A stretch of 64,000 bases of DNA, taken from contig CM097883.1 of assembly GCA_044892505.1 (NCBI GenBank), positions 258,912,001-258,976,000 on the forward strand, in the 5' to 3' direction. Each line of letters opens with the position of its first letter. The first letter of the stretch is position 1. The stretch is from Schmidtea nova (Eukaryota). A program made the position numbers and the translations under genes. The notes beneath the pieces were generated by a model. It ran no database searches. It saw nothing but the letters and a program-made list of their open reading frames with translations, and had not been told where the DNA came from. Of this stretch, positions 4,222 through 38,227 are shown one piece after another.

Positions 4222-5137
4222 GTGTTTGAAATCTTTGTACTTTGCTCTGCAAAGAGATTTTTGAACGACGGGAATTCCTGCTGCATTATGTATTGCATTA
4301 TGTATTACTCATGGCAAAATAAATCAATGTCAGTCTCTGGAATTGACAAACATTATTGGAGATGCAAGGGCAAAAGTCGCAAAATTGGTTTACCGGTCAG
4401 AAAGAGAAATTTTTTCTCTGGTTCTCATCTAATTGTACGTGATATTCTCAGAATAATCTATTACTGGAGCCCAGATACGCCTTGCAAAATTATTAAGTAA
4501 ATATTGGAGAACCCACTTATATCGATTGAATGAATTTCATTCGTGATATCTGTGGAAATTATTTTTTCATCGATCACCCCATTATTCATATTGGTAGACC
4601 GGGACGAATTGTCGCAATTGATGAATCCAAATGCTTTCATAGAAAGTATCAACGGGGATCATATCGCGAAAGTCAGTGGGTTTTCGGCGCTGTCAATGTG
4701 GATAATCACGCTGACTGTCTACTTATTGTTCCCATTGATCATCCTAATAGAGGGACTCTAGAGCCTCTAATTCAAGAGTATAAAATTCCTGGAACAAATA
4801 TTTTGGGTGATGAGTTGCGTGCTTACTCAAACCTTTGTAATTTGGGACATGCACATTACACCGTAAATCACTCGGAAACCTTTCTATATCCCATAATGAA
4901 TATACATAAAAATCGCATAGAAAGAATGTGGAGTTGTGCAAAAGAAAAAATAAGACGCGTACATGGCATCTCTGCATCATTATTCCCTAATTATTTGGAA
5001 GAGTAGCACAGAAGACATCCTAAATTTAAATTTCAACATATTCTGCTACACATTTCCGAGCAGTATGAGTATATATATATTCTGATATATATATTCTGAA
5101 TATGAAAAATTGTGGGGGCGAAACGTAAGGATCGCTG
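4222..5137 (+). mobile_element. Merlin (IS1016/ISXO2-like) DNA transposon, decayed transposase
   Basis: ORFs 4222-4500 and 4530-5006: WRC..., IVAIDESK...RKYQRG...QWVFG, ILGDELRAYSNL, HYTVNHSETF, IERMWS are typical ISXO2-like DDE motifs. In-frame stops are present; the left TIR was not found. Confidence 0.88.
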
Positions 5138-10176: not shown

Positions 10177-10865
10177 TTGTTTGCTATGTTAATAAAAATA
10201 TCTCTAAAGTATAACGATGAATAAATACGAAACAACAATTTAATTGAAAGTTATCAAGCCCTCAAGCTCTATTATCCTCAGATCATTGAAAAACTATTTA
10301 AAATATTAATATATGTACGAGAATTGCCATCGAAACTATTATAGGTGCACAATGGTTTGATTTTTGGCCAACTTTATAGTTTTAGCTTGATACCTGGCTT
10401 GACATTAATCTTTTTTGTTTGGTACTCGTTGCGTGACAAAGTTGATACTGTACTAAGTGGTTGAATATTTGTAAAAGGATGAGCTGCGTGTCCAAAAGCC
10501 CTAAAACCTAGTCAATTCATTTAAGTTCAGGTACCAGTGACAAAAGGTTATGGTATTCTTAATTTCTGGTTCATTCATCATATATTTAGCATGATCTTTA
10601 TTTATTAATACTTTCCAAAAATAGAAATTTCTAAAAACTACTATTCTGATGTTGTTTATAACCCTCAGACATATTTCATTTTCCCTTCAAACTCACTGAT
10701 ATTCTATTTCATCTAAACTGGTTACTAATACAATCATAAACTCCTGACAATTTATTATTGTTTCATTAACTCACAAACAGAAGACAAAAATTAAAATGAA
10801 AACGCTGATTTAAACAAAATATATTTAAATTATCTATCGCAACAGCAGTTGGTCTACTATCCTTA

Positions 10866-11282
10866 CTAAATTTGCAAGTTATTCACTTTTCTCTCAGCTT
10901 TTCCGGGTCTTAGTTTTCGAGGTTTGCCCTCTTCTATGAACCTATTTGTCGATGCATCTATTCTATCAAGAAATAATTCTTGCTCTAAGTAAGACAATGG
11001 TTTTATCGTCTTGTTCAGGGTGTCTTGTATCTTTTCTGGTTTGCTTGATATTGCTGCTCTCGTAACTTAACCTTTTACGCACAAATTTCGATTTCATCAA
11101 GGTGCACTTGGATTTTTAAACTTCGATTTATTTCCGCGTGCGCAGTATCTTACCAGATTTGTACCAAGAATATTCAATTTTTTTGCAACGCTGTAGGAGA
11201 CTTGTCGCCCTTTCCTCTGCATCTGGTTTTGTTGGGTCACTTTTTCAGGAGAGATTTTAAGTCGTTTTTTTATCGTGCACAT
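10866..11282 (-). pseudogene. Decayed copy of the orphan ORF-X family
   Basis: QELFLDRIDASTNRFIEEGKPRKLRPGKAER aligns without gaps to QELFPVRVEEEIQKPSVPEKPKRWKPIKGMR of ORF 25132-25650; an upstream REQ block is in a shifted frame; stops and frameshifts are present. Confidence 0.55.
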
Positions 11283-13150
11283 CTATAAAAAAGAAATTCA
11301 TAAACCTTCGTAATTATAACAGTAAGTCATTTTTTCTTATACAAAATCAGATTATTTCCTATATAATATATGAAAAGGTAAGATACAAAATTGAAAGTAA
11401 AAGCTGTCCTAACAGAAAAAAATAATATTATTAAAACTACAAAAATTAAAAACATTCATCTACGGAAATCTTTGTTTAAATGTATTCTGATCTTGGCTTG
11501 ATGCTTCTCGCAATTTGCTACATATGAACTGTTCCTCCGTAGCATCTACTTCTCTTTTTTATGTAAACGACGACGCGTTCGTTTACCTGGTTTGTTTTTG
11601 ATTCATTTTGATTTATTCGAGTTTACTTTCCTATTGCTCTGGCTGACATGAAATCTGTCTTTGCACTTCTAATTTAGTCATGATTTGTGGCATATTTTCC
11701 ATAGTAGTCACTTCTGGTTCAGATGGTTCCCGCTTGATAATAACTATCTTTGGAACCGATTGGGATTGATAATGCTCCATGAGAATCGGACATTTCTTTT
11801 CTCCTTTAAAGACCACACGAAATACGCGCTCGTAGAACATTCTTCTCGTCAGCGGTAGAGTCAGGAAAGCGTTCATTACCTCCATGAGAGCTTACTTAAG
11901 CGTGAGAGTTCTATGTACTTGATCTAATTCTGAGTGGTTAGCTTACTGTTTCGTTTGTTAGAACATGATTACAAAGGTTAAAGTAGTTTATAACTACTGA
12001 ATACTGGTTAGGAAATTGGTTTTACAGTTAATTAGCTGCGAGAGGCCACTGTAGAATGGACAGAAACTCGTCTTCAGGAATTTTACAAATTATTAAGATT
12101 TTTGGTCGAGCCTTGAATGATTTGTTTATATTTCAGTTAAATCATTTATTCGATTAATTTACCTTTGTTATGATTAGGTTCACGAGTATTTTTTCCCTTT
12201 TTTGCTGTTTATTTAATGAATTTATTTAAAAATGGAATTTATTTAATGATTAGATTTCTTTATCGATTTTGTAATTAAATGATCAATTATTTACATAATT
12301 AATTATTTACATGATTAATTATTTACATTATTTGAATTTTACTTTTAGTTGATAATTGATGGAGTAAACGGTGTGATGTTATGAAATTCAGAGAAGAAAA
12401 AATGAGGGCAATGAATTAAGAAATGAGAAGATCACACTAAAAATTGATGAAATCAAACTAACTACTAGATATTACTAAAACATCTTCTAAATTATTTTCT
12501 AAATTAGATTGAGAAGTTGAAGTCACAATTCCAAGTTTTTATTTTAAGAAATATTATATAATTTTCAAACAAATTTTCAGCCTTGAACAAAAATATTTTA
12601 AAATATATAAATTTAAAATTATTTATAAAAATTATATTTTATTAAAATTTAATTATATATTTTATCGACTTTTAAAAATTTAAATTATAAAAATTTAAAT
12701 ACGCATTTAATTATAACAATTATTTTAAAACTTATTAAATTTAAATTATTTATCATTTCAAATTATTTTAATAAATCATTAAAATATTCAGTTCTCAGCT
12801 ACAAACACTTCACACAAATAAAATAAAAAAGGTCATTAATAACTAATAAGTTAATACCAAAGGAATACCAAAATCAAAAACAAAATCAAGAAGGTAATTC
12901 ATAATTTGACAGCTTGTCAAAGATAATAAGAGTGCAGAAAAAAAGTCTGAACCGAAAAAAGGAAAGAATAGAATACCTCGACAGTTGTCAGAGATAAAGG
13001 AGGAGCTATGAAAAAAGTATGGAGTAGGCTTGAGGTAAGTAAATGGAAAAACAAAAATAATTTCAAGTACCAGTGAAGGGCAAACTATAAAAGGGATAAG
13101 CCACAGTTGTTGAATCAGAAAAAAATAAGAAGAAGAGAAAATGTTAGAAG

Positions 13151-16942: not shown

Positions 16943-18350
16943 TTATATCTCCCCATTCATGATGGCCATGAATTCTTCCATGTTTACTACAATTGCAATA
17001 ATCAACAAAAATAATCATCAAAACGGATACTTGATCCATCTCCATCTTTATCGAATTCCTCAATCATCGCTCGTATTTCGTGATCAGTTAATGTTTCTCC
17101 CAACTCTCTGACGGAAATTATTTAACAATATTTCTCCTGACAACAAAAGTCACACAAACCTTGCAACTTTTTTCAAATTACGATAGCTAATTTTACCGGA
17201 TTCATCATCGTCGAACAATTTGAAAGCACGAATCATTTCGGTTGTTGGGTCTCGTTCGAGAATCATCTCAGAAACTAACAATTAATTTTACAACAAATCC
17301 ATCGTCATCAGTAAAAGCTTATATCGTTTTCACTATGGATCTCTTACAATTTCTATTTCTACTTCTATCCATATCTTTTTGGATCGTAGAGAAATATTTT
17401 GATTTTAATAAATATTTTTTTAGCAAGAATTTTTGAAACAGTCTTTTATCCAGTGTACGAAAGAAAGTAATGAAGATAAAGGGAAATTTAATTATTGCCA
17501 ATTTTAATAGTTTATATGCTTTACTGAACTCGAAGGACTATCTCGAGCACGTAATGAGAGAATGTAGATCAACATATTTTTCAGATCAATTTTCATGTAT
17601 TTTTCATTATTACAATTTCAAATTTTTTCGAAAGTTTTTTTATTGAAGAAATTGTTAAAGATAATTTATTGCTTTAATTAAACTGTTAACACAAGTATAA
17701 ATAAGATTTAATTGGCTAGCCAACAAAAATTTGGAATTCCCATAACTCTAAAGTAGTCGAAGTAATCAACATCTGGGATAATTTTTACGGCTTTAAAATA
17801 AGTTTTTCGCTTCGCAAATAATACTTCATTTCTTAAAACTAACAATTTCCTCTTCGTTATCTTCTTTCTTTATCACCAGTGCCGGATTTAGGCTTTTTAC
17901 ACTTGTATAAAAGCAAATAATTGCCATCATCTTTCAAACATATATGGAGGGAGAATGGCGCCATAGCTGAGTTGCCTCGGAACTCCAGTTNNNNNNNNNN
18001 NNNNNNNNNNNNNNNNNNNNNNNNNNNNNNNNNNNNNNNNNNNNNNNNNNNNNNNNNNNNNNNNNNNNNNNNNNNNNNNNNNNNNNNNNNNNNNNNNNNN
18101 NNNNNNNNNNNNNNNNNNNNNNNNNNNNNNNNNNNNTCATAATGATGACTATAGATCAAAATATTTTTATAAACAATAACACAATATTTCGGCACAACCT
18201 TTATCAAGTGTGTATATATACACACTTGATAAAGGCTGTGCCGAAATATTGTGTTATTGTTTATAAAAAAATTTTGATCTATAGTCATCATTATGGGAAT
18301 TATTGATAATAATAATAAAAGAAGATCAAAGGCGAAAAAAGATAATTATG

Positions 18351-18429
<79 letters not shown>

Positions 18430-21400
18430 CGCTGGTATGAGGGAAAGCCGAACACTACTCCTGCATATGGCACAGTATCTCAAGGGGCTCTGAAACAATG
18501 ATCAGTTTTTAATAAATTTTTCTAAAATTTTCGAATTTTGATTATTGAAATTGCGTTAAGTATTTTTTGAAAATGTAAGCAACATCTGCATCTTGCAAAA
18601 GATCTTTCAGTAAATTGTAATTAATAAAAAATCTATTTAAGATCAAAATTAGGGCAAGAAAATGTAAAAAATTTAAGCATTATCTCAATTGAAGCTGATT
18701 TAGCAAATAAAATTAATTTTGATGGGATAATTAATGAATTTGCTTCATTGAAAGCATGGAAAGTTAATGTCTTATAACTCTAGAGGTAGCTATTTATCCT
18801 TGTTGTTCTTTTCAATAGATATATTGTTACAAAATCATATATTTACTATTTCACTGCAAAAAACTGATTTCTTTCTTAATGTATACAATTTTCTTTGAAA
18901 AGGCGTAAATTTTGTAACTTGCTTAGGGCGCCAGTTTAGATTGTCCAACCTGTAAGATGTATTTATATAAACTATTCATATTTATATCATATATATTTTA
19001 TTATTTGAATGTTGTGGTATGTTGAAATTGAATGTTGGAATTGTTCGAAATATTATTTAAATTTAAATTAATTCTCCATAGATGAATTAAGAAAATACTT
19101 TGTTTAAATAATAAATAGTTTTTCACGTCTTTGAAATTTTAATGTATAAATCTAAAATGAATCCTAACATGGCGACCACGCCTATGCTGCAGTTTATTAG
19201 ACCGCCAGAAACATTCGAAATCGGTGATGACATAGAAAAATTTATCGAAGAAGCAGATAAATATTTTGAACTTAACCAAACAGCTGAAGAACACAGAGGA
19301 GTTTTTATTAAAGCATTTTTTTCGATGGAAGCAACGCGAAAGTTAGATGAAATGGATCCTGAAATTCATTACAAGAAAAGAATCCACAATGCCTTTATGA
19401 AGCCATCCAATTTAGTGATATTTCGAATTTAAGTGATATTTCGAACAATGTTTGCATGGATTTAAATGATTGTGAATGTATGTATGATTTGAATGTGAAT
19501 GAATGTAATTTGAATGTTGATATGTATTTTGATAATAGTTTGAATGAACTTAATAATTATAATATTTATGATTTAAATAATTTAAATGAAAATAAATTAA
19601 TATTTAAGCCATATCACCATAGTAAAGCTAAAAGTACTAATATTTGCAATCTAAAAGTGGAAAATCCTAAATAATTTATAATTAATTATAACCATATGGG
19701 AGGAAGACCTAGTGTTGAAATTGAAATAAACAAAGAAAAAGCAATATGTATGCTTGATACAGGGGCAAAGATTAGTATTTTAGAATACGAGATTTTTAAA
19801 AAAATTTGAAAACGTAATATTGGAAAAATGTCATATTGAAGTGAAATGTGCAAATGGCAGTGGAATAATTGTAATGGTAAGGATAAATATAACTGTAACT
19901 GTAGGGGGTATTTCAAAACCAATAGAATTTTATGTTACTCGAGGAGTTATTTCAAAAATAATTGGGGGTATAAATTTTTTAATGGAATTTAATATATATT
20001 AACAAAGAACCAATATTGAGAAATATCAGATAAGTTATATTTAAAAAAAGAAAGATGATTTCAAAAAAATGGAAAGAGAAGACAAAGAAATCGAGAAATT
20101 GATTGAAGAATATGAAACGGTATTTATGAAACATAAATGGGACATTGGTAAAACAGAAATAGTACGACATGAGATAAATACGACAGGGCCTCCAATTGTT
20201 ATTAATCCAAGACGTCAACCAGTACACCTATTATCGAAAGTAGAAGAAAATATTAAAGAGATGGAAAAGAATGGTATTATAAAGAAATGTGAATCACCGT
20301 GGAATTCGCCACTGGTGTGCATTAAAAAGAAAGACAAAGATGAGATAAGGATTTGCTTAGATTTTCGAGCATTAAATTTAGTAACAGAGCGACCTATTTT
20401 TCCTATACCAAATACAGAAGAAATGATGGACGCTTTTAATGGATCGAGATTTTTCACAACACTGGATTTAGGCAGTGCATATTACCAAGTGGAGTTAACT
20501 GAAGATTCAAAAAAGAAAACGGCATTTTTTACAAAGAATGAGCAATACTATTTCAATCGTATGTCATTTGGAATAGCAGCGGCTTCTGCTACTTTCCAGA
20601 AATTAATGAATAAAGTACTTGGATTACTAAATTGGAAAGAAGCTGTAGTGTATCTTGATGACATCCTAATATTTTGAAATACTAAAGAGGAACACATAAA
20701 AAGAGTAAAAAATGTTCTAGGCAGAATTAAAGTTGAGCCGAGAGAAATGTCATTTTTTGAAATTTGAAACTAAGTTTTTTTGGTCATATCATAAATAAAG
20801 ATGGTACAAGAACGGAGGATCGTAAAATTGACGCAATAAAAAAGTTAGAAAGACCAAAATGTTTAAAGAGGTTGAGGGTTTTTTTGGGACTTACGAATTA
20901 TTATCGAAGATTCATTGAAAATTATACAAAGTATTCTAAGAATTTGGAGAAACTATGTGGGGGTAATCAAAAAAAATTTATATGGACAGATGAATGTGAA
21001 ATAGCGTTTCAAGGAATGAAAGAACAATTAATGAGAGCTCTAATACTGGCTTTCCCTGATTTAAAAAAATAATTTATATTAGATACTGATGTAAGCTTTG
21101 ATAGAATAGGAACGGTGTTATCACAATTAGATTCTAATGGAAATGAAAGAGTGATTGCGTATGGATCACGTGCGATGAGTACACACAAATTAGTGTATTG
21201 CATCACTAGAAAAGAATAACTTGCAATTTATTATTTTACGTTAAATTTTAAACATTATTTATATGGGAAGCGATTTAGACTTCGAACGGATCACAAGGCA
21301 ATAACATTTATGCTTAAAACCAAAAAACCTATTACACCACAGTTTCAGACGTGGATTAACCATCTTAGTAGTATGGATATGGAATTAGAGTACAGGAAAG

Positions 21401-24204
21401 GCGAATTACATGTTAATGCTAATGTTTTATTACGGAACGAATGTGACACATGCATACAGTGTCAAACAATACACGAAGAACCAAAGAAAAGTAGTAGAAT
21501 CCTAGCGTTGATGCTAGGAGATGATGGTTCCATGTGGCAAAAGGATTCTATAGAGACTGCTGATATAAGAGAAAAAATACTGAAAGGAGAAGAGATCAAA
21601 TATGAAATTAACAATAATGTTATAACAACGAACAAAAGGAAAATATGGATACCAAAGGAAAAGATAAGAAAATTCGTAGAGCACACTCATCAAACGTTAT
21701 GCCGTGCAGGGGTGAAGAAAGTGCAAGATTATATTTCACAAACATTTGATTTTGAAAATAAACGTGAACAAATTGAAATTGTAATTCACAGTTGTAAAGA
21801 ATGCCAAAGAAGAAAAACATTGACAATACGACCGAAAGAAACTATTTTAAAACATAATAATTCGAATTTATTTGAGACGATTTTTATTGATTTTTGTGGA
21901 CCTTTAAAGACAACAATTCATGGAAAGAGATATATATTGGCAATTATGGATCAATTTCGTAGATATATATCATTAAATGCAGTATCAAGACAAGACGAGA
22001 ATACAACAACATCTACTTTGAAAAATAATTGGATTTTAAAATACGGAGCACCAAAGTTTATACACTGCGACAGAAAGAAAACATTCAAAGCAAAATTATT
22101 AAACAACTTAATGAACATTTCCCAAATTGAAATAGTATACTCAAGCGCTTATCATCATTCAGCTAATGGAATGATTGAAAGACAACTCAGAACCATAAGG
22201 GATGCAATTCAAATTTCCATAAAAGATAAAAATGTATAAAAATTGGGCAGATTTACTGCCAGAGGTGGAGTTTATGCTTAATTCGACGATTCAGAGTTCA
22301 ACAGGCTTTAGTCCTGAGCAAGAAGTATATGCCAAGAAAATATACAAAGAATGGTAATCAAGGGATAACAAGGATTCAGAAGTTAGAGAATACGTGAACA
22401 TTATGAATAAAAAAGAGAAACAATGACAGCACAATTGGAAAAGAATGAAAGAAAATTATAATATAACAATAAACTACGAACAAATCGAGAATTTAATGTT
22501 GCGAACTTTGTGTGGATAAAAGAGGATGTTATCTCAAAAAGAGGATAATAGATATGATGGTCCTGGTGAAATTATTGAGAAACGGCACAATCGTAGGAAT
22601 GTGGTAAAAATGCCAACTGGGAAAATAAAAATTAGAAATATAGAATGGCTAAAGGAATATAAAACTAAAAAAGATTATTGAAGGAGGGAGTGTAAGATGT
22701 ATTTATATAAACTATTCATATTTATTTTATTTATATTTTATTATTTGAATGTTGTGGTATGTTGAAATTTAATGTTGAAATTGTTCAAAATATTATTTGG
22801 ATTTAAATTATTTCTCCATATATGAATTAAGAAAATACTGTTTAAATAATAAATAGTTTTCACGTCTGAATTTTTAATGTATAAATCTAAAACGAATTCT
22901 AACAAAACCTATGTATATAATGAAAGAGAGAGAGAGAAAGAGAAAAGACAAAGACAAAGAGTATACATAGAGCACATTTCATTGAAGAACACAATTAGGT
23001 GTTTGTATTTATAGGCAACAAAAGGGTTATTTATCTCAATATAATTTTATTGGAGTAATAAGATAATCGAAGCATTTTGACTTTGGACAATTATGCCAAA
23101 AATAAGCGGATTTCATTGTATTACCTTAAAATGTTAATAAATTCATCATGTTAAAAAGCAGTAAAAAAGATTATATGCCACTCGTGTAGTAAAAATTATC
23201 ATATAAACACAGATATATAGCAAATATTGAAAAGTTTCTGAAATTTGATTGTCATGATAAAAACAATAAATTAAATTATTTCGAATTTTTAATCAAATTT
23301 GTCGGAACTGCCTTTTTCATGAGTTTATTTCAATAACATTATATTTTATTTAATCTTAAATATTTTTAAAATTTAAATACTATATAGAAGAAATCCATAT
23401 AATTTTCTACAATTGAAAGATATAAATTACAACGAACAAGTATGTAAGATAGTCTTATCTATTGATGAAACGAAATGTCAACTTTTTCAAGAAAAGTTTA
23501 AAAATACCTTAAAAAATTAGCCCCCGAAACCTTTTCAGCAAAAATCACAACACGTTCATCAACACTCAGCCGACATAAAATCACAGTTTTTTGTTAAATT
23601 ATCATCCAATTATATAAATTTTAAATTTCTTATCTAATATTAAATAAAATGATTGTAATAAATACTTGAAAAAAGCAGTACTGAAAATTTGTGTTGTTTA
23701 GGAAAACTTTTTGATTTATCGTCTTATAAAAGAAAATACCTGTAACTAATTGTTGGTACAATAATAAACTAAATAATGTTTTCTAAATTGCACAAAATGA
23801 AAATTAAGATTAGAAAATAAATTATAATTTTCAATTTAAGATACATTTTACTTGATAAAACACATTGTAAACTGTTTAATTTCCAATTAATAATCTTACC
23901 AATTTCATTAAAATCATCAAATTTAATTTTAGGTGATTCATCTTTAATATTATAATCATTCAGTATTTTAATTACATCTTGCTTTTTAACTTCGAAACCG
24001 AGAGCTCTTAACGAGACCTTAATAAATTTTTAATAAAAACGTAAAATGGATTTTATAAATATAAATTACTTTAAACTCGTACTGACTTAAAAGTCCATCT
24101 TTGTCTGAATCAAAAAGCTCAAAAGCTTCATTTATTTCATTTCTCTGATCGACAGTAAGTTTGCGTAAAGTTTTTTTCTTGGTTTTATTTATAGAATTTT
24201 CCAT
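16943..24204 (-). CDS. CETN3: Centrin-3 / Cdc31-type EF-hand protein, 162 aa; exons 24204-24070, 24017-23900, 17274-17160, 17107-17031, 16986-16943
   Basis: All four introns are GT-AG (52, 6625, 52, 44 nt) and the exons join in frame: MENS...[39 protein letters not shown]...[90 protein letters not shown] and [11 protein letters not shown] are centrin-3 hallmarks. Confidence 0.96.
17877..18950 (+). mobile_element. Non-autonomous hAT remnant (ZMYM1-like dimerisation domain) in centrin intron 2
   Basis: Starts with CAGTGCCGGATTTAGG, a hAT-type end. 18547-18776 reads, across a frameshift, [15 protein letters not shown]...[41 protein letters not shown]. Confidence 0.75.
18138..18295. repeat. 158-bp near-perfect palindrome; dispersed family with partial copies at about 5622-5800, 52040-52110 and 54632-54800
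   Basis: Left arm cataatgatgactatagatcaaaa...tttcggcacaacctttatcaagtgtgtata pairs with the right arm tatacacacttgataaaggctgtgccgaaa...ttttgatctatagtcatcattatg. Confidence 0.92.
18951..22904 (+). mobile_element. Ty3/Gypsy LTR retrotransposon, decayed, antisense within centrin intron 2
   Basis: LTRs 18951-19169 and 22691-22904 (TGTAAG...AACA); PBS TGGCGACCACG; PPT GAAGGAGGGAG; TSD caacc/aaacc (1 mismatch). Domain order PR (MLDTGA), RT (YLDD), RNaseH (TDVS, TDHKA), IN (IDFCGP, HCD); several stops. Confidence 0.95.
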
Positions 24205-25131
24205 AATTAAAGTGTGACTATTAAGTTATTGTTACTAGTAATGCACAATATAACAATTTAAAATTTAAGTGTACGCTATTGTAACTAACATCAAGTAAAT
24301 AATTTAAAACAAATAATGATTAAAGTCAAAAAATATTATATTTTGCTAATTATTTTACAAGTTAACAGATAGTTAATATAAATAATTATAAAATGTTCAA
24401 AAGATTGCCAATAGTGTTTACAAATTTTATATTCTATTGATTTTTTTGATTTACTTTCTTTTTTATAAAAATTAAATTTCTATTTCTATTTTTTGCTATT
24501 TCATTTAGTTTTAAAGCACCTATTTTACCATTTCAACTTCTTCCATTAATCGTTTGGCATTCACAGAGTCTCAAATTTTATGTTAAAAACTTCAAAATAA
24601 TTTTAAATTGAGAACTAAAAATACCGTTGTCACGAATATACTTAACAACTTTTGAGTTACCAGTGGTGGGTTGTTGACCGTCAATATGACCTTGACGTTG
24701 CTATGGCTCACATCAACAACTCAACATACAAAACATTAGAATAACCATCTGGTTGCCCGTCACAATGTAACAAATGAGTGGGCATTCGCAATCAGTCAGC
24801 GTCAATAACTCAACACCATGATTGACCGAATATCTCTTGGGTCCAAGGGCTACCGATAAAAGGTTTAATGCCCATTTTGTCCCTTCTTGCATAATTTAAT
24901 TTCAGATCTCAATTCAAAATTTGCAAAATTAAAAGCTTTGTCGATTCAAATTTACTAATCTGTTTCAGTTGATTTCTTTCACGAAAATGATTTTCTGTTT
25001 TTATCAATCTTATTCATATCACACATTATACATTCAAACAAATAAGTATTTTAAACACATGAGAAAACTTGTAATAATATCATATCACCACATAAACTAC
25101 AAGAAAAATGTTATCAATTCAAATCATTGAA

Positions 25132-25687
25132 TCACAATAGTGTTATGTCAATGAATTCAGATGATTTCTTACGCAATTGTCCCAGCAATCGCGCTTCTCG
25201 ACGATGTTTTCGTCGAGCCCTCATTCCTTTGATGGGCTTCCAGCGCTTGGGTTTTTCAGGAACCGACGGCTTCTGGATCTCTTCTTCGACTCTGACGGGA
25301 AACAATTCCTGAGATGGTTGCTGTATTCTTGGCAGTACGGCTGCGATGATGCCGCTTTCTACCCTTAACTTATCGATCAGGAGCTCCTGCTCCCGCATGA
25401 TCATTCTACAGGCGCGAAGTCTCAAGGCATCTTCCGCGGCCTGCTGCAATAACACATGGTTCTGCTTTTTCAACTTGTTGACCGTCTCTTTGTTGGACCA
25501 GGTCGATTCCATCTCCCGGCATCGAGCCCGAAACCTCTCCATGCGCGAGGTCATTATCTGCAATGCCTCCGCATTCGATGACTTCAGCATCTCCAGCTCG
25601 GCGAAACACTGATCTACCTTGCGATTGTGTTTAGTGTTTTCGACGGTCATCCGCCAAATTTCCTCTAATTTTGTTCTGAGTTCATTG
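25132..25687 (-). CDS. Orphan ORF-X (at least 172 aa; predicted helical N-terminus, Arg/Lys-rich C-terminus); probable terminal exon
   Basis: GC-richer open frame; extends in frame to a TTATTTTCAG acceptor at 25688 (NELRTKLEEIWR-MTVEN...); homologous decayed copies at 37671-38227 and 10866-11282. Confidence 0.55.
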
Positions 25688-25859
25688 CTGAAAATAAGTA
25701 TAACACCTTCAAAACGTATTTAGACAACTAATTAACATTAGAACGTATCGACAAAAAGTTATTTCAACATAGAATTTATTATTAGACTCAAGCAATGGTA
25801 GTGTCTCCATTGTCACTCTCAATTCGGAAAAACATCACGAAAAAGACCTGGGAAACAAT

Positions 25860-28800
25860 CCATTCACTTGCTATCTTTTCCTATTTAGCTATTGAAATTT
25901 TTTTTAAACTCCCTATATTTTCGTGTGTAAAAATTTAGTTGAAAAACTCGCTTGAATATTAATCCTAATGTCTATCTTGCCACATATTTTAAGATTTTAC
26001 AAAAATTTATTATTTTGATTTTTTAAAAATCTGCTGAGGCATTAGCGACGGTTAACGACGTAAGTTTTCCCGATATGACTAATTTTACCATTAAAAATTT
26101 ATCTAACATTTAAAATTTTATACTTTTTGAAATTTCAAACAAAATTTTATATTAGGAAAAACGATCCCCATCGTCCCCCATCCGAAACATCGGCGTTCTC
26201 CCTATAAGAAGGAATATTATATAAAGGGGAAACAAAATTTCATGAGTTCTGATTGGCTAATCCATAATATGTAAATTTAATTTCCATAATAAAATTATTG
26301 ATTTGAAATTATTTTTAGATCTCTGGAATTCCTTTTCTACTGGATGCTCGTAAGTAAATTGATTTTATGTTGTTACTGTATATCTAATGATTTTAGCCAA
26401 AGGTCAAATTCAGACTCCTGGATAAAAACTCTGAGTGGAACTGATGCAAACGAGAATCTGATTTTTTCTATCTGCTATAATAGAGGTAATTTTCTTGTTA
26501 CCAACAAAACACAGTAAATATGTAATTTTCTCCAGATTTTAAATTCGTTCTTTTATGAATTGTCAGTCAGCTTGACTTCCACTTCGAGGGTTCAACATTC
26601 TCTCTGGATAGTTTGAGGATGGAAGGTTTACTATCGCATTTTCCATACAGCTTACATTCACTCTCGTTGGATCATTCACTTCGTCAGTGTCTGGATGTCA
26701 CTATAATCTCAACTAATGGAATTTATCCTATTTGTGATGTGGCATTTTCCTAGCCAGTTTTCGTCGAAACTGTTGTAAGTGAATGTGGTTGAAACGTTTT
26801 ATTTTTTGTAAATATAATTTTCTGTTAATTGGATTTTACTAAGTCAATAACTTTTTAATATAATAATTTTTGACTGGAGTTTTAATTAAAATTAATACAA
26901 ATAAGGAGTGATGTTTTTAGGAATTGTAGTATGGCGAATTAATGATCGAAGTCCAAAATATGTTACCGAATAGCAGTAGAAGAATCTTGACGTCAGAATT
27001 CTACGCATGAACAGCTAAGCAACAATTTTAATAAAAAAAATTCGAGTTGCAATCAATTCTTGATACAAAATTTTGATCTTCTAAATAGGCAGCTAGGAAG
27101 TTGGGGTATTACTTTGGTGAGTGAATTAAGGGCATAAAGTTGAAAATACTATCTGAATGTATTTCATTGCTATAGGGTATGTTTAGCGAGTGAGGTGGGC
27201 TAATCTGTAGAGATATGTGGGGGATCTAACTCTCATAGGTGGTGCAATTGATGAAAATGCAGATTGTTGGTTACAATTGATCGAGTGGGGTTTATGAATC
27301 GGCGTGCTGTATTCTATAATGAGACTCTATATGGGATGTTGTAATTTGCTGTGGTTTTGTGAGATGGAATGGAGGAATTGCAAGTTTGTGCTTGCGTAAT
27401 ATTATAGATTTGAGATGAATGTCCTTTTTCTATGATTTATGTGATTGTATGTTGGATAGATTGTTAAATGCAATTGGTAATTCGATGTGAATGTTTGTGC
27501 AAAATCTGTATGTGTGATGCAAACAGGTACTAACGAATGGAATAAAGTGATGTATGTTGGTGAATGGATGTGTTGTCTATTGTAGAGCCTAGTATAGGAG
27601 ATGTTATTTATCGAAATATTAGAGTGTGTGTGTATTGGGAATTGAATGAACTTCTAAATGGCATTGTATATGGATGATGTTATTGAATGGTATGGATGTA
27701 TTGTTTTGCAAATATGGATGTAGTATATCTTTTGTGATATCGTGAGGGTTAGTTTATAAATTAATATATACATAAACATAAATAAACTTTACAATAAAAT
27801 AATAATTCTAGTATCCATAAATCTTCTTAGTTAAATTTTTAAAATTTGAATTTTATAAAGTTACAATAAAATTTTCGATTTATACTTTTTATATTTTAAT
27901 ATAATCATAATAAATAAAATTTTAATTTTACAAGCTAATACAAGGATTCGATTTATAATTTTTACTTTTTCAGGAGAATCTTGATAAAGAAAAATTTTGT
28001 ATTTTAAATTTTCCATGATAGAATACCTATAAAAGTAAATTTCGGTTTTATAATTAAAATTTATAATTTCCATGAAGTTTACACGATAAATGAAATTTCA
28101 ATTCATAAATTTTCCTAAATAAATTAAAATAAATGAATAACGTAAAATTTATCCACCGTTATACAAATGTTTTTATAATAAAATTCTTGATTGGTAATTT
28201 TTCACAGGGATTTGAATCTGCTGATCTAAAGTAATTTTCACAATGATATTGAGATTTCAGCTTTTGAATCTTCGTTCGGTTATCATTCAAAATCAACTCT
28301 CTAATGCATAATAGTTTTCGACATCAAGTGAGGTGAATTTTAGTTTCGTTCGAGCGTGAATTTCCCGAGCAAAGTGGCCGCAAATTTTTCGAGACACTTC
28401 ACTCGAGAACTTCAGTCTCCCGAAACTAAGGTTCACTGGAGTAAATTATTTAGATAACTATGCATTTAATGAGGTTTAATTCAAATAAATCAATACTTGC
28501 TCTCATATTTCATTTCGTTGTTAATGTTTTTATCGGTTTTGAGCATTATTTTGAACGATTTTTATAATATTGACTTTTATTCGACTTGTAGATTCTGATA
28601 AGATGATAATTATTGTGAGGGTGAAGGCGAATAACGAGTTGGAACTTTTTATTAAAATAGATTCTGTTAGATCAAAGACGATTGTTGGATGGAGTAACGA
28701 CATGTTTTATCGAGTTATCATTTTTGCCTTTCATTTTTATCTTATATAATATAATTCAGATATACTAAAATAATATAGTTAAAATCATCAGTATACACTC

Positions 28801-31800
28801 TTGCCCTTGGCCAAGCCACTGTTCCCCAGTTGGGATGATGTGAGCATGGATGTTTCAGCGTCACCTTGAGGCAGAAAAATGAGCTGGTCGATTACGAATC
28901 GAACAGCGATCCGCCCAGGCTACTTCCATCCGTACAGCACAAGGCCGGACGGATTTCAGATTGTATGGGAGCAAAAGAGATATTATTATTTAATAGATAT
29001 GATATATACAATAAATAAAATTGACATTCATGATGGGAATCTGTGACAGTAATTATAAAAATTTAAATCATAATGTAGAAATAATAAACGAAAATTCCAT
29101 ATAAGATTTGATATTTTTAAACAAAGTATCTTTATTAACAAGAAGTAATATTACACCTAAACTTCCTATATAAAAATTTGCACATAATTACATTAAGCAA
29201 AAACCTCATCAGGCATGGGATGTCCAAAGGGCATGACTTTTTGGGCCTCCCATACCGACAAAAGTATATAACGTTAATAAAATAAGATAAAAAGTGAATA
29301 AAAATAAAAATACCCTCACGTTAAAATGCGGCTTTCCTAATAGGCTTTTCTAAAGTTTTCTTGAATTATCCGATAAATTCTTGTAACTGAAGTTTTCACC
29401 AGTGTTATTGCGGTTTTCTTAATAAATTTGCCGAATCAGTTTAATGCGGCTCTCCTACTCGGTTTTCTAAAGTTTTCTCGAATTCTCCGATAAATTCTTG
29501 TACAGATAACTTCTCGGGGAAAAATAAATCAAATTAAAGATGGGTTTCGCCGAAATTTCTCTACAAAAATTTCTTCCGCAACCGAAAATTCAAAATTTTT
29601 AAACAATATTTTTGCACAAATTCTGCATTCTGCCATTTTGATGGCGGTATATATACCTCCTTCTGTGAATTATCTTCATTGATGTATTAAAACAAATTGT
29701 TCTAGAAGGAGTTTCTATTTTTTTCAAAATTAATTCCAACAATTTTTCGCAAAATTAAATTGATAATTTTACATCAAAATTTCATAAAACTTTAAATAAT
29801 TTATTTTCAATCCAAAATTTTACTTTTGAATTAAAGTTTATTCTAATTTGATTTAATTTGCTATATTTTCGATCAAAATTGTTTTCTTTTATATTTTTAC
29901 GAATTCTTTAGATAAAATCGCAATTTTCCTTCTAAAAACATGCTAAATGTCCACAACTGAGGTTTTATAACATGGATGCGTTCTCCACGTGCATATTCGA
30001 TGTGTTCTTTGCCTATTTTAGCTTTTTAGACATGTTTTTTTAACGACTTTTGGTTTTACTAGATGTTTTGATTAAAAGACGTTAGATTAGAATTTCGCAC
30101 GCTCTCTACTTGTGGTGTTACCGCTTTATTTAAACAATTTGCAGTTTTGACCCAACATTGCTTTAAATATAAAAAGATTTTTATTAAAAATCTAATCATT
30201 TTAATTTTTGAAAGTTTGCCAAGGCCTTAGCAATAGCAACAATATAAATTCTCTAAATAATTTAACCTTATCGATATTTCCCAAATTTGCGGATTTTATG
30301 TTTATTTCCAAATTTTAGGTCAAATTTCAAACTAGGAAATCCGATATTGATCGCATTTCCATCAAAATCATCAGCGTTCCCCCGAAATAAAAGAAATCTA
30401 TATAAATGGGGAAGTAAAAATCATTATTCCTAATTGTCCATTTACATTATGATTTTGTGTAGTTCTGGTTTTAGAATTCGGATTCTCAGATGACAGAAAT
30501 CTGGATATGCTAACCAGTAATTTGATTTGATTTTCTATATAGGAATTATTTAAAGCTAATTTGATTTTAGAGAGATTGTACAACCCACCGTGGATTTGGA
30601 GAGTTGGTGGAAACGTCCAGTTTTCCACTTTCATCGCTCTCAAAATACAATCTCAGAATTAACTTAATGACAGCAAACCAATTTTGTATTCAAATTTTCT
30701 ATCCCCTATCCCTACTCTTCTGGATTGTGGATTATGTAACTTGAGCACTCTCTCGCTCGATTCGCCAAAGAAAACAGTCAATCCACTGCAATAACCAACT
30801 CCAAGGCTTATTGTAGCCCCTCTTGTCTATGCAGGGTCGGAATTGTTATTTTTCGGAATTATTTTTCTCTCAATCCTCATTATGCCTGACTACCTAGTAA
30901 AGACTTATTTGTTACTTAACTAAAAGTTGGGTAAAAGTATATTGTTACTCTTTTATGAATTTTAAAAAAAATTTGTAAATTTTCTTTTCGTTTTCCCTTT
31001 TCTATATTTTGCTCGTCGGATTATGCAAACGCTTCCTAGCTATCATGTTTTTATGTGATCGAACTTAAATCACCTTACGAATGTTGGGATAGCCATTATT
31101 AGTGTGGATTTAGAAGATGTTAGTCACTAAATAAGTTTTCTCGTTTTAAGAATAGAATAATCAAATTATAGATCGAATAATCACTCCTCTGAATAGAGTA
31201 CTATAGAATAAATGTCTTATGTTATGAATGGCTTGTGGACGGCATAAGATAGCTGGACTTCCACAGAGACTATCTGGATGTTGTATGCCGTATGTGATGT
31301 ATTGAGGAATGAGATGGAGGGGTGAATTTTCATCTGTGATGTAAGGTGTAAATTACACTAAATTACAGTAATAATGGCNNNNNNNNNNNNNNNNNNNNNN
31401 NNNNNNNNNNNNNNNNNNNNNNNNNNNNNNNNNNNNNNNNNNNNNNNNNNNNNNNNNNNNNNNNNNNNNNNNNNNNNNNNNNNNNNNNNNNNNNNNNNNN
31501 NNNNNNNNNNNNNNNNNNNNNNNNNTATTATGAGTTTTCGTTGTGATAATTGTATGTGAATGCAGGTGATTGTATGTGATTGTATGTGATTGTATGTGAT
31601 TGTATGTAGGATATGATATTAATGCAATAGGCAATTCAAATAATGGATATGATTGTGTGAGTGCTTATGGTATTCCTGGATGTATGAATCAAATAGGTAC
31701 TATTGAGTGAAACAATATAGTGTGTGTGTTGGTAAATGAATGTGCTAATGAATGGTATTGATGTAATATATTGCAAACATGTATGTAAAATTATTTTCGT

Positions 31801-33942
31801 GATATCGTGAGGGGTATTTATAAAATAATATATATTTATATATAAAATAATTCTACAATGAAATAATATTTTTAATATTTATAGTACTTATAATTTTTCC
31901 TATTTAAATTTTTAAATTGCGAATTTTATAAAATAACAATAAAATTTTCGATTTATAATTTTTATATTCTAATAAAATAATAAAAAATTTTAATTTTGTA
32001 TTTTGTATTCTAATATAAGTTTTGATTTATAATTTTTACATTCTAGGAAAATTTAAATTTTATATTAAAATTTTTACATAATATATTATCTATAAAAGTA
32101 AATTTTATTTTTATAACCAAATCTGAAAATTTTATAAGATTTATACCATAATAAAATTTTTATTCACAAATTTCACAATCTAAATAATTCAATCAAAAAA
32201 AAATTTGCATATATTATATTATCTTTGAATGTAAATTATAATTTTTACGAAAATTAATCCCGATCATATATGAGTTTCTAAAAATAAGGTATAAAAATTC
32301 AAGCCGGTTCTTTTGGCGATCTCTAATTTTCAAAATTCTATATGCAGTTCTTAGAAGTTTTTATCAATGATGTTCACGATTTAGAGTAAAAATTCAACGA
32401 ACTATTATCGAGCATAATCTGTAAGCATAGTTCAATATAACTTTTTAATTGATCTTCGAGTTGTCATTTATGATCTTTTATACGTTTGACTCTCCGATCG
32501 ACTGTGCGAATTCTTTCATAGTGAAGTAAAGATGACGTTTATTAAGCGAAAGCGATTGGCGAGACGAATGAATATTTCCGATTCATTTTAATATGTTCGC
32601 ATTTTTATGTAGTTGTGAGAGCTATGTGATTTAATATAAATAAAAATAACTACAATATTATAAATAAAATATTCATTTGCGTCTTTGAATACCATTTCGC
32701 ATTTCAAAAAAATGTAATAGAATTCTAGACGTTAATTATTTTGAACAGACCTTGCACTTGGCCAATCCACTACTTCTCATATAGCCAGGTATGAGATGAA
32801 GCGTTTTTGGATGTTTGCGCTCACTTCGATGAAAATATGGATCAGAACACTGAAATGACTAGAGCAAACTGATGATTCACCAAAGCGACTAATGACGTTA
32901 CAACGACTAGGTGGACCATCATCAGACGTAAGGAAAGGGTTTTAATTAAAAAATAAATATATAAATATGCATATAAATAAATAAATGACTATCAATATAC
33001 GTATGTTAGGTTATGAGAAAATATGACCAAAGTAAAAATAAAACTTGAATAGAAAAAATTATAATAATCATTACATATTTTACCATAAGATAACACATTA
33101 TCAAACTTGAATAAAATTGAAAATCAAATCAGAATACTTACGGCAGGTTAACAGGGCATGATTTGCTAGCCTGCATAACATAAAATTCATGATTCTTACA
33201 TAATAGAATAGCTTCTCTGCTTGGTTCGGATACGAGTTCTAGAAATCTGTCGAGGGGTTCGAATTCCGAGAATTCTCACACGATTTTAAGCAAAGTTATT
33301 TCTTAAAATTTTACTGCTAAAAACGTTTCAAAATTTTTAGCAACAAAATTCCGGAAAATTCTGAGCAACTTCTCGTGAAATCCATTTTGATGGCGCTATA
33401 TATAGTTGCTCAGATTGTTATTTTCGTTAGTTTATTAAAACAAATTGTTCTAGGAATTTTTCGATTCTTGAAAATTAATTTTAATAATTTTACGCAAAAT
33501 TGAATTATTAATTTTGCATAAAATTCTAAAAAAACTCTAAATAATTTATTTTTGATCTAAGATTTCATTTTTAAATCAAAGCTTTTCCTAATTTAATTAA
33601 TTTATCATAATGTCTAACTAAAACAATTTTCTTTCATATTTTTTGAATTTCTACACTAAAATTTGAAAATTTCCTCCCGAAAAGTTGTTAATTTTTCCTA
33701 GTGTGCTATTCCATTACACGATTTATGTTCTCACGTTATACATGTGTTTTTCACATATACACTCAATGCGCTTTGGTTCGTTTTAATTTTTCAACGTGTT
33801 TTGATAGATTATTTCATTTTTTTCTGCTGTTACTGGGTCGTATTTGGTGTTTTAGGCCACATAATTTTAAATCTACTTCTTGCGCGCTTTCTACATGTTG
33901 CATTACCACGCCATTTAAACAAACCTCAGTTTTTGCCCAACA
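25860..33942 (+). repeat. Two head-to-tail copies of a decayed unit of about 3.75-3.8 kb
   Basis: Ordered homologous blocks at 26030/30215, 26190/30370, 26410/30475, 27730/31795, 28800/32755, 29225/33150, 29632/33382 and 30100/33885. Confidence 0.8.
26319..26760 (+). pseudogene. Decayed multi-exon gene segment (exons 26319-26349, 26397-26485, 26536-)
   Basis: 47-nt GTAAGT...TTTTAG and 50-nt GTAATT...CTCCAG introns give an open frame LWNSFSTGCSQRSNSDSWIKTLSGTDANENLIFSICYNRDFKFVLL, then one TGA and about 65 more open codons; paralogous sequence at about 30460-30660. Confidence 0.45.
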
Positions 33943-34243: not shown

Positions 34244-37200
34244 GGGTTAATACAACCCACATCACAACGTAAATATCAATCCATCACACACGTGTACCAA
34301 TAGTTATTCCACAAGTAACTATGTTGTTACTGTACACGGTTGCGAGAATCTAGTGAGCAGGTGAGCTTCATTGTCCAAACTACTCCTCACTAAATTCTCT
34401 CTTTCGGGTTGTTGCTGCTGATAGAAGGACTTATGTATCTGCTTTCTTTTCGGTCCTATCGCATGATTTCCCTCCTAACGATCTATTACTTTCCGCTATC
34501 AACAATATACCTTTATTCATTTTCAATTAATTTACCAACACGATGAATGCTCCTGACCATCACATTTTCTCTCGCCCAAACTTAGTTCAAGTACGCCGCA
34601 TCGCCTAACTCTCCGAAGAGAGTCAGGACGAGAGGCCGTTGCTTGCTCATCAGGTCGCGAGACCATCAGGACGTGCCCTTATATATTTTTCTCTTGAGGT
34701 TCTGAGGGTCTACCCACGAACAATCATAAATTTTTATGATTCAAAACATTTATTGAATATCATTCACATAACATGATTAAATCCGATGTTCTTTACAGAT
34801 TGCCATACACAAAACAAACCTACTCACCTAGGCTACTGGCTGTCGAAAATGAAATTCTGCAAACTTTTGCTTACTATCTATTTATTTTTATTGTGATTTT
34901 TCGCGTTTATTTATACTAAATAGACTGACACCCACGCATTTCCCATTCAAATAATTATATTATGATTTAAACTCAATTTATTTGTTTCAATAAACTATTA
35001 TTTATTTAATTTTTTGTAAATTTAATTTTATTATTTAATTTATTTATTTCTAAAATATTTGTTTTTAATTCCGATAAATGATGTGTGTGTGTCCATTGTT
35101 TTTGTACATTTATTGATTGATTAAAACAATCAACTTTAATTTAATTCTATTTTTATTCCTACCTCTGTTATTTTTCCGATATATGAATGGGGATTTAAAT
35201 TTGTAAATTTTAATAAATTATTTTCTTTATTCTGATATCAATTTTATTCTTTGATCATGCTTTTCGTTATTTTGTACAGCGATGATCTTCCCCATTCAAT
35301 TCTCGTGCGGTCCTTCGTGTGTAAATGCGACCTGCACTCAAATCGTGGGCTCTCTTTTGAGATGCCTCTTTTCTATCGTTTAAGCCCTATCTCGACCGAT
35401 TTATAGAATGCTTACTTATCGTATGTTTACTTTTGTACTTTACTGTTTTATTTTCATTTGCGTTAGTTTACTGCGTAATGCTTTATTGTGCGTTTTTAAA
35501 CTTGTTCCTTTTTAATTTTTGATGAATTCAAACAAAATTTTATTTTCGACTTCCCCAGCCAAACACTCAAATAACTGAAAAAAACACTGCTAACGTGTTT
35601 ATGTACCGATCTCAGGTTATTATCTTATTTAATTTACACTAGACGTTCATGACATTCTAATCCCTTGCACATGTACCCTCAATTATTCCTATACAATTGT
35701 GTTAGTAATGGTGTATTCATGATAGTTCTTGATGACCTTGACTGTTACCATGGCTCATCATCAACAACTCAACACATAAAACATTTATAACCATCTTGTC
35801 GCCCGCTACAATGTAATGTTGGTAATGCAAAAAATGGGTAGACATTCGCAAACAGTGAAGGTCGAAAAATTCGAAACTTTGATTGACCGAATGTCGCGGT
35901 GGGTTCAAGGTGCCCGTTTTAGTTCCAAACTGAACTCTCTATCTTCGGTTTGTAATATGTAACCAAAAAGTAAGATTTGATATTTGTCCCATATTCCTAA
36001 CTGTACACTTGCTACGGTAAACTTACATTATGTTATTATAAATAGCGATAGCTACCATTATTATAATCCTTGAAATCAAATAAGATTCATGCTGGGAAGT
36101 ATGAGTGTTGTTTAAAATGTATTATTGACTCTAGGGATGCATACAAACCCTCACCGCAACATAAATGTTATCTACCTCATCCGTGATCCCATAGTTACTC
36201 CTCGATAAGCTATGTTGGTAATGTATATGATGGGGAGAATCCAGTGAGCAGGTGAGCTTTGTTGTCGAAATTACTCCTTACGGTATCCTCTCTTTCGGGT
36301 TCTTGCTGCCGATAGAAAGTCTTACGCATCTAGTTACTCTCTATTTCTAAAGGTCCTTTAAATTTATCAATTCTCGATCTACTATATCCTCACACTATCT
36401 TATTCACAAATCCACACATTTTTATCCCAAAAATATATTATCAACACTCCTAAATTGTATTTTTGTCTTTTTTTTACCCCGCCATCCTATATGGTTTAAC
36501 GATAAAATGGTCCGGAGGAACCGATTTTTCGGCCCAAACAGTTCCTAACCATCGGAGATTCGTGACTGATGAGCCATCAAAGACTCTATTTGAATCAGTT
36601 TAATCGGGGCAAATCAATTTGAACAAGGCAAAACAAAACAAATTTATCGTTAAAATAAAATATTTATTATTAATTACAATTTACTAAAATGCAGTCACAA
36701 ATAATTACGTAATAATTACGTAATAATTACGTAAAACATTTAAAAGAATACATAAAATAAGAACTTACTTGTTACTGATGTACCACACAATTGAATAGAA
36801 AAATTACTGACCGGTGCTGACTGGCAGAATTGAAAATCGTGAATTAACGTGTTACTGTGTTCAAAATGTACTCAAGCGTGTCAAAAATTATTCAGGCGTT
36901 TGAAAAATTATAATTTTTCAGCGTCTATTTATACTATTTTTGGGTGACTCCTACCCATTGTTCATTAAAACAATAATGTTTAAAATTTAATTCATATATT
37001 TATTTTTATATTAACGTTTTTATTTTTCTAAATGATTTATTTATTTTTTTCCTTAAATTTAATTTTATAATTAATTTTATTTGTTTCTAAATATTTAATA
37101 TTAATTCTATTAAAATAATGTGTGTATCCGTATTTTAAGAGCGTTATTGATTGATTAAAAAATCAGATTTAATTTCAATTCTATTTTCATTCCTATCTCC

Positions 37201-37577
37201 GTTATTTTTACGATTTTTTAATGGGGATATTTTCTATAATTTTTAATAAATTATTATCTTTATTTTGATAATAGTTTTATTCTTTGATCAATCTTTTTAT
37301 TATCAATAATTTCACCAATTAAATTCTCGTGCGGCCTTTCGCGTGTAAATTTGACCTGTACTCAAATTGTGTGCTTTCCTTTGAAATGCATCTTTGTCAT
37401 CGTTTCTCCTTTATTCGACCGACTTATGAAAAGCGTTTCGTATGACTACTATTTATGCTTTAATATCCTACATCTTTCCATGCTATTTTCCTGTTTAGTT
37501 TTCTTACGTGTTACCGTGTGATATTAATTTTATTTGACGTATTAAAAAAACCGAACCTCAATTCCGCCAGTCCAACA
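34244..37577 (+). repeat. Two head-to-tail copies of a decayed unit of about 1.9-2.0 kb
   Basis: Homologous blocks at 34244/36135 (117-nt AG...GT exon-like block), 34570/36530 and 35060-35565/37100-37577; a third copy of the last block lies at 15470-15797. Confidence 0.8.
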
Positions 37578-37670: not shown

Positions 37671-38227
37671 TCAGATCTTCTCGAGAATGGAAATGTCAAT
37701 GGACTTCGTTGAGGTTTTTCTAATCTGCCCAACACTTGAGCTTCTTGCCGTCTCCTCCAGTGAGCTCTTAACTCCTTGCTCGGCTTGAACAGTTTGAGCC
37801 GGGTGGTATCTCAGTCGAGGGGTTTTTTCCCTCTTTCCGAACTGGAAACAATTCTAGGGAGAGATTACAGAGTTTTGGGAGCACGGTGTCTGTTAGTCCT
37901 GATTCTACTCGTGTTCGTGCCAATTCAGTGTCCCTCTCCTGAATTGCCATCTTCAATGCCCTGTGCTGGGCGGCGTCCTCGACAGCTTGTTGTTGGAGTA
38001 GTTTGATTTGTTGAACTTTTCAGTACTATCAACGCTCGTCCATGTCGTTTCGGTGGTCTGACATCGGGAGCAAAATTTATTTATCCGCTTGACGAGAGAC
38101 TTATTTTAGACACAGAGGAGCTTCTTTTCCTCCTCCATGCTTAATAGGCGCAGATTTATTTTTGTCGGACGCTTTGTTCTATCTCTTTGACTGACTTGAT
38201 CAATTCCTCAATTTGAGAGTGTGACAT
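37671..38227 (-). pseudogene. Decayed copy of orphan ORF-X
   Basis: KLLQQQAVEDAAQHRALKMAIQE..RVESG...VLP....SLELFPVR and the frameshifted GQIRKTSTKSIDISIL match LLQQAAEDALRLRACRMIMRE..RVESG...VLP....SQELFPVR and GQLRKKSSEFIDITLL. Confidence 0.75.

Follow-up and report, generated by a model that had tools for sequence, protein, structure and literature searches.

The reading frame ORF-X, found in a 64,000-nucleotide stretch of Schmidtea nova DNA (the window), is almost certainly a small gene that giant Ty3 retrotransposons of the Burro type carry within their long terminal repeat (LTR). The family features a protein gene provided with a putative promoter, a predicted intron and a selection history of its own, all within an LTR; the window locus itself is an ordinary decayed, dead repeat. 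The earlier note had described an orphan family of three copies: the gene is instead carried in the LTRs of thousands of retrotransposons. A search of the genome (1.25 Gb) with ORF-X produced 5,275 first-look candidates and, among the 150 that were scored, about 70, as counted by eye, contain no internal stop.

The window is AT-rich and full of repeats; its three ORF-X copies are reported in Table 1, along with the features surrounding them. In stop-free relatives the family protein is about 184 aa long, starting at an ATG equivalent to 25685. Copy 1, previously regarded as the intact one, does contain an ATG-to-stop frame of 172 aa (25650-25132, minus strand), and is frameshifted after the family ATG. 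Since the break falls within six codons of 25685, the open frame only appeared to extend upstream into the acceptor, and an upstream coding exon is unnecessary. When copy 1 is compared to its nearest relative, dN/dS is 0.54, with a range (0.23-1.52) that takes in 1. All three window copies, "intact" copy 1 included, are damaged remnants in solo LTRs. A family of orphan host genes whose coding sequence begins in an exon further upstream, or a copy domesticated at this site, would fit the 172 aa still open in copy 1 and the acceptor ahead of them; the thousands of dispersed copies, featuring LTR ends and target duplications, together with the broken frame and the dN/dS value just given, largely refute this explanation and leave it hardly any probability.

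Table 1. Localization of ORF-X copies, splicing signals and LTR features in the window
Feature	Position	Strand	Remarks
ORF-X copy 1	25132..25685	-	family ATG at 25685; break within first six codons; 172 aa open from ATG 25650
ORF-X copy 2	37671..38227	-	older subfamily; stops and frameshifts
ORF-X copy 3	10866..11282	-	old, nearly all-dead family; TTTTTATAG immediately precedes ATG
Separate decayed ORF	11450..11885	-	co-occurs with copy 3 in the repeat family of the latter
Splice acceptor AG	25688..25689	-	2 nt before family ATG; 20 of 21 loci; exact site used in intron-less L190
Predicted intron, 3.6 kb, inside LTR	25688..29319	-	GT at 29319-29318; deduced for copy 1 from aligned donor and L190
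TATA-like box and conserved promoter motif	29635..29658	-	about 500 nt into LTR; promoter activity putative
Complete LTR, 5,494 bp, TGTTGG...CCACCA	24664..30157	-	collinear with other ORF-X LTRs; both ends common to LTR of gag-env-pol element
Related LTR, 5' part	30158..33942	-	CTGG flanks 33942 and 24664
Conserved LTR 3'-end block, about 235 nt	24664..24900	-	last 14 nt followed by primer-binding site elsewhere in the genome, not here
Nested solo LTR, 1.5 kb, of another related family	36090..37577	-	behind copy 2; TGAA target duplication
LTR 3'-end block of copy 2	35709..35910	-	
LTR 3'-end-like block behind copy 3, weak	10419..10494	-	nhmmer E 0.0016

The kinship of copy 2, proposed from inspection of the sequence, is well supported: its local score against ORF-X is 128, the shuffled maximum is 62 (0 of 1000 shuffles reach the score), and a profile search gives E 1.3e-9. 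For copy 3, the direct similarity formerly claimed is not significant (score 40, reached by 208 of 1000 shuffles), and the relationship is recovered through a family profile, built from single-frame pieces of genomic relatives (24 of 25 loci fetched, out of 135 matches). This profile recognizes the window copy 3 with E 2.7e-7 and matches ORF-X at 95.5% (E 1.5e-8; 0 of 60 column shuffles as high), the copy-2 family at 96.3% and ORF-Y, a remote homolog described below, at 87.8%, the latter two each outscoring all 60 column shuffles. In the same comparison, nine unrelated internal ORFs, with several coiled-coil ones among them, reach at most 1.7%, and two reversed proteins at most 0.2%. Copy 3 is assigned to the ORF-X family because the profile matches exceed both the shuffles and the unrelated-ORF controls. 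The ORF at 11450-11885, where a weaker but similar basic tail had been noticed, has no detectable relationship to ORF-X: its score is matched by 375 of 1000 shuffles and its tail gives 4.5%. It matches neither ORF-X nor the other ORF that accompanies ORF-Y in its LTR, and is listed as a separate ORF.

The LTR setting is indicated by the boundaries of the repeats. A sharp common 3' end, at ...CAACCCACCA, is found about 470 nt past the ORF-X stop in 16 of 20 loci of one set and 15 of 20 of another, the two sets sharing five loci; the LTR start, TGTTGG..., lies 5-6 kb upstream. By a strict search, perfect target duplications of 4 bp flank 3 of the 7 older loci with both ends (the inner start of the window, at 30157, being a miss); 4-bp duplications are also present at 4 of 4 young paired elements. 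In the window, TGTTGG is found at 30157 and 33942, and CCACCA at 24664; these termini match those of the LTRs in L090/L093 and L084-L089. As CTGG is present at both 33942 and 24664, the region 24664-33942 is taken as one chimeric solo LTR, holding the complete 5,494-bp LTR.

The LTR end followed by the primer-binding site, which we take to resemble tRNA-Pro, has 1,970 exact matches in the genome (control, 0). ORF-X is located upstream of such a site in L076, L077, L181, L184 and L190; it is of the window type in L181 and L184, the former also featuring a Burro-type leader. The lack of a primer-binding site at the window copy is expected for a solo LTR. At 40 loci, 31 LTR ends were found behind ORF-X and none is followed by the site, indicating that most ORF-X LTRs are either solo or 3' LTRs. 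The "H module", which the earlier note had seen at a similar distance behind two copies, is probably the LTR 3'-end block; if so, the similar spacing is borne out, the gap from ORF-X being about 250-280 nt for copy 1 and about 275 nt for copy 2, once the nested LTR is subtracted. Behind copy 3, the block is weak and the gap is about 370 nt.

The LTR end block matches no Rfam family and has a folding z of -0.83; ribozyme, tRNA-like and Penelope readings were therefore dropped. Repeats of the Penelope-like/Terminon type were also evaluated by searching 144 kb for the hammerhead ribozyme: no Rfam match was found at the gathering score, and the target duplications and primer site indicate LTRs. 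Nesting of these LTRs in each other is frequent; a 29-kb element carrying ORF-Y, for instance, sits in an LTR of the same type as window 31815-33899 (L056:4005-5680, L059:5124-5556).

L090-L093, the one complete gag-env-pol element read from the ORF-X LTR group, is bounded by identical 4,107-bp LTRs, with the same ends as the ORF-X LTRs, and encodes Gag, MATH, a fusion glycoprotein, PR, RT, RH, IN and ankyrin repeats; ORF-X is absent from its LTR. L084-L089 is bounded by 99.9%-identical 5,830-bp LTRs with an open ORF-X, and contains BIR, RING, TRAF, ankyrin and protease genes; no gag, env, RT or IN match was found in its interior. Among the elements read, no complete gag-env-pol element was seen to have ORF-X in its LTR; the 10 kb that follow L181 yielded a single short match. 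ORF-X is present in 4 of 50 sampled LTR-plus-primer-site loci (2/20, 0/20 and 2/10), picked by end motifs and not at random. The existence of a complete element without ORF-X, and the presence of the gene in only these 4 of 50 loci, indicate that ORF-X is not needed in cis.

Planarian Burro elements (GYPSM1) are giant Ty3/gypsy retrotransposons with a Gag-MATH-Env-PR-RT-RH-IN-ankyrin order, according to the available text of PMC6431247. The elements described here are Burro-type, as assigned by domain order. As in that text, they are about 30 kb long and feature long LTRs, an env located between gag and pol, and BIR/RING/TRAF cargo; their Gag contains zinc knuckles. They differ from the published description, the text of which gives internal domains and accessory ORFs, in the LTR gene, the LTR intron and the non-autonomous derivatives. 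An LTR-borne gene or intron is not mentioned in the text available for the Burro literature searched (PMC6431247, PMC13465017, PMC8532177, PMC11410931, PMC13524379). Burro elements are already known; the LTR-borne gene may be new, an earlier mention in the two main Burro papers, or in figures and supplements, being possible. Young non-autonomous Burro derivatives (L084-L089, L094-L096, L173-L174) keep RING, TRAF, ankyrin and, in L085, BIR-RING cargo, and show no gag, env, RT or integrase match; one such derivative is a tandem with three LTRs.

ORF-Y has 9,481 candidates, which often form pairs on one strand with 21-44 kb between them. It occupies a comparable position: in a young 29-kb gag-env-pol element (L056-L059), whose 3,234-bp LTRs are identical, ORF-Y is found 390 nt short of the LTR end. 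The direct match to ORF-X is weak (3-10%); ORF-Y is considered a remote homolog because the copy-3 family links the two and because both have the same position and predicted layout. Upstream of ORF-Y, the same LTR holds another open ORF, about 210 aa long, at all ORF-Y loci scanned (L056:7108-7764, L033:4918-5637); it gave no convincing match in Pfam. Another diverged and decayed family member, 35% identical to ORF-Y, is present at L178:6994-7419 (minus strand).

The LTRs carry signals compatible with splicing. An AG is found 2 nt ahead of the ATG in 20 of 21 ORF-X loci, with variable adjacent bases; the corresponding gap is 3 nt for ORF-Y and 0 nt for copy 3. A TATA-like motif is located 500-600 nt into 8 of 8 LTRs of the ORF-X group and is followed, after 240-340 nt, by a GT(A/G)AG donor in 11 of 12 aligned LTRs. 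The leader in between is highly variable; in 4 of 8 LTRs it is free of ATGs, and in the other 4, the window LTR being among them, it holds at least one. Poly(A)-like signals are found 200-430 nt ahead of the LTR end.

For one subfamily, the spliced junction was predicted beforehand: two exact matches were found in the genome, at C2:138.22 and 138.24 Mb, on the same strand and 14.1 kb apart (control, 0). The match that was fetched, L190, features a 1,973-bp LTR lacking exactly a 3,854-nt GT-AG intron, with an open ORF of 190 aa and then the primer site; its ORF, of the spliced type, begins at the ATG just after the acceptor. As judged from the sequence, the simplest reading is that L190 is a copy reverse-transcribed from spliced RNA, and the second match would be the other LTR of the same insertion. 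Over its first 948 nt, L190 has 99% identity with the LTR of the complete element lacking ORF-X, which suggests that LTR modules recombine. For the window-type subfamily and for ORF-Y, a search with one exact junction pattern each found no match in the genome. Four sequencing runs showed no GT-AG joint among the joints listed, a result with no bearing on expression.

It is likely, from these features, that ORF-X is reached by splicing of an LTR transcript, the gene lying either within U3, with a promoter of its own, or within a very long R. An in-frame acceptor at 25688 had been read as the sign of an upstream exon: the acceptor is confirmed by the 20 of 21 loci, and the idea of a coding exon is contradicted by the ATG following 2 nt after it. 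The putative upstream exon is accordingly a short leader and does not extend the reading frame of ORF-X. A frame running upstream through the acceptor, as in a host coding exon, was rejected: relatives start at the ATG 2 nt past the acceptor, and so does L190.

Codon comparisons argue for purifying selection on ORF-X across lineages. For 26 non-redundant stop-free copies omega is 0.184 (lnL -5801.3, against -6107.3 at omega 1), and for 13 ORF-Y copies it is 0.174 (lnL -1864.4, against -1933.5 at omega 1), values that may be biased down somewhat by the use of stop-free copies only. Pairwise ORF-X ratios are 0.35 in close pairs and decrease to 0.07-0.13 in distant ones, within bins that hold 210 of the 325 pairs, the remainder being saturated or outside the bins. 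Such a trend is expected where selection acts on a gene in active source lineages and its copies drift once inserted. The dN/dS check indicated in the earlier note for the family thus gives 0.18 over the 26 stop-free copies, not a value near 1, in agreement with a selected protein. The presence of a gene inside the LTR accounts for an LTR length of 3-6 kb, and for solo LTRs possibly staying coding.

ORF-X proteins have a pI of 9.1-10.2. An Arg-rich stretch, with 5-7 Arg in 15 residues, is present in 26 of 26 ORF-X copies, and all 13 ORF-Y copies have 7. The structure models are poor (pTM 0.24 and 0.23) and predict a similar layout for ORF-X and ORF-Y; in the ORF-X model (pTM 0.24), three long helices with hydrophobic a/d faces are followed by a disordered linker and then by a C-terminal helix rich in Arg. 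The accessory protein envisaged from the first reading, with a helical N-terminus and a basic tail, is in line with both model and sequence. A C-terminal hydrophobic motif resembling an export signal can be seen by eye in ORF-X; it is absent from the database protein P0002 and not clearly common to ORF-Y.

Database comparisons yielded little beyond the family. Pfam gave nothing above cut-off for ORF-X, a PDB sequence profile found generic coiled coils only, and the ESM Atlas returned unnamed and generic coiled-coil clusters, with low recognition. The fold search suggested earlier, run with Foldseek against viral and PDB structures from the low-quality ORF-X model, gave no match at E 0.001. A full HMMER protein scan found two matches outside the genome, P0001 and P0002, which score 96-98% against the family profiles. 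Word-indexed protein searches found none for ORF-X, only itself for P0002, and none among longer proteins, the latter being weak evidence. P0001 is a database protein of 416 aa, with a calponin-homology domain and an ORF-X-family domain at its end, and is probably a gene model spliced into an LTR. Annotators should be aware that an acceptor-plus-ORF cassette of this kind can fuse to host gene models.

The earlier note had also thought of a capsid-like protein, and a structural or chaperone part of a particle, either matrix-like or a nucleic-acid chaperone, may be considered more generally. ORF-X is basic, helical and small, as such a protein would be, and the elements encode a fusion glycoprotein, as Burro does in the available text of PMC6431247, so that they may form particles. 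Yet no capsid or matrix fold was matched, the elements possess a zinc-knuckle Gag of their own, a complete young element lacks ORF-X, and derivatives without gag retain it. The capsid-like role is not supported, and a particle protein of any kind is quite improbable.

As to function, ORF-X is tentatively predicted, by analogy, to be a trans-acting factor of nuclear RNA export or splicing control, of the Rev/CERV kind, a guess that falls somewhat short of an even chance and is suggested by the modeled long helices, the Arg-rich tail and the precedent of CERV. Transcription would start at the TATA-like box in the LTR; a short non-coding leader would be spliced, over an intron of 3-4 kb, to the acceptor located 0-3 nt before the ATG; polyadenylation would take place near the LTR end, each LTR being a self-contained transcription unit. 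The helices are predicted to oligomerise and the Arg-rich helix to bind element RNA; the protein would then act in trans, protecting or exporting element RNA that retains the intron. Since the intron is retained in nearly all LTRs of the genome, the template for copying must usually be unspliced RNA, and the element would thereby meet the export problem of complex retroviruses. ORF-X may be regarded as a candidate for RNA regulation by giant, envelope-bearing Burro elements in planarian stem cells, where a contribution of Burro1 to regeneration has been reported.

Rev, HTLV Rex and HERV-K Rec are small, basic and helical proteins, made from spliced RNA and featuring an Arg-rich motif. ORF-X is similar to them in all these respects, splicing being predicted, and possibly in a terminal hydrophobic motif; it differs in the lack of a sequence or fold match, in much longer helices and in its LTR location. 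Genes within a terminal repeat, or overlapping it, are known from vertebrate retroviruses: MMTV sag and HIV nef encode proteins, are reached by splicing and are under selection. ORF-X shares with them position, splicing and selection, while its protein is unrelated, and a single LTR contains everything from donor and intron to ORF and poly(A)-like signals.

A precedent among Ty3 elements is CERV, from C. elegans Cer1: according to the available text of PMC10309623, which also refers to the role of HIV Rev in the export of unspliced RNA, CERV is produced from a spliced mRNA and is needed for the export of unspliced RNA. Both CERV, as described in that text, and ORF-X are Ty3 accessory proteins with a spliced mRNA (predicted for ORF-X), an acceptor before the ATG, zipper-like helices and a basic signal. 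CERV, in contrast, is 517 aa long, shares sequence with Gag, contains a Cys loop (M domain) and a G-like domain, and is internally encoded (PMC10309623), whereas ORF-X, of 184 aa, has an all-helical model with neither Cys loop nor G-like domain, and is located in the LTR.

Several results speak against an export factor. A complete young element lacks the gene, which is carried by 4 of the 50 LTR-plus-primer-site loci; no likeness to Rev, Rex or CERV was found, either in sequence or in fold; the tail resembling an export signal is not conserved, being absent from P0002; and spliced junctions were not found in two other subfamilies. A wider proposition would see Burro LTRs as self-contained, intron-bearing genes that encode a Rev-like regulator not described before, with thousands of solo LTRs and the non-autonomous derivatives supplying it in trans: an invertebrate env-bearing Ty3 lineage would have arrived independently at the switch between spliced and unspliced RNA known from complex retroviruses, outsourcing it to its own LTR debris. 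In this full form, the idea is doubtful.

The protein might instead be a transactivator or an anti-silencing factor, again encoded by a spliced LTR-borne gene: a coiled-coil oligomer with a basic helix lying on LTR DNA or nascent RNA, raising expression or blunting piRNA silencing in trans. Tat, Tax and Tas are transactivators that work through LTR DNA or nascent RNA. A basic helix following long amphipathic helices would suit such a protein, expression from solo LTRs fits a trans-acting factor, and the gene is kept by derivatives that lost gag and pol. However, no DNA-binding family or fold was matched, no acidic activation region was seen, and the basic region, C-terminal to the helices and behind a disordered linker, is in the reverse of the order of basic region and helix found in bZIP proteins. 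Burro RNA rises upon smedwi-2 RNAi, according to the available text of PMC8532177, which would be consistent with transactivation or anti-silencing; on the whole this explanation is unlikely.

Finally, ORF-X could be an LTR-borne, host-modulating cargo, active on stem-cell survival or innate defence, as Burro1 B-IAP may be, with no direct role in replication. Its patchy presence among LTRs (4/50) and the BIR, RING and TRAF cargo of Burro elements favor this idea, as does Burro1 B-IAP, which is reported second-hand, in the available text of PMC13465017, to aid regeneration. Word-indexed searches, the HMMER scan and the ESM Atlas found no host homolog, though, and position and splice geometry are conserved across distant LTR families, which suggests an old element function; cargo of this type has little probability. 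An RNA export or splicing-control factor is the reading preferred here.

Other sequences of the window may be briefly mentioned. An EF-hand, centrin-like host gene (24070-24204, minus strand, and following exons) is located 460 nt downstream of the solo LTR end, on the same strand, and the solo LTR could influence its promoter. A 4-kb Ty3 element lies at 46093-50095 (plus strand); its 132-bp repeats are identical, and its gag-pol occupies a single frame, interrupted by three stops. Further decayed pieces of Ty3 pol and fragments of DDE transposases are found at 20045-22239 (plus), 42889-44674 (minus), 4530-5006 (plus) and 59146-59718 (minus). Near-perfect palindromes, with spacers of 0-1 nt, are present at 18138-18295 and 51216-51750, the second being mostly N; the first matches a repeat end also found at 5669 and 54663.
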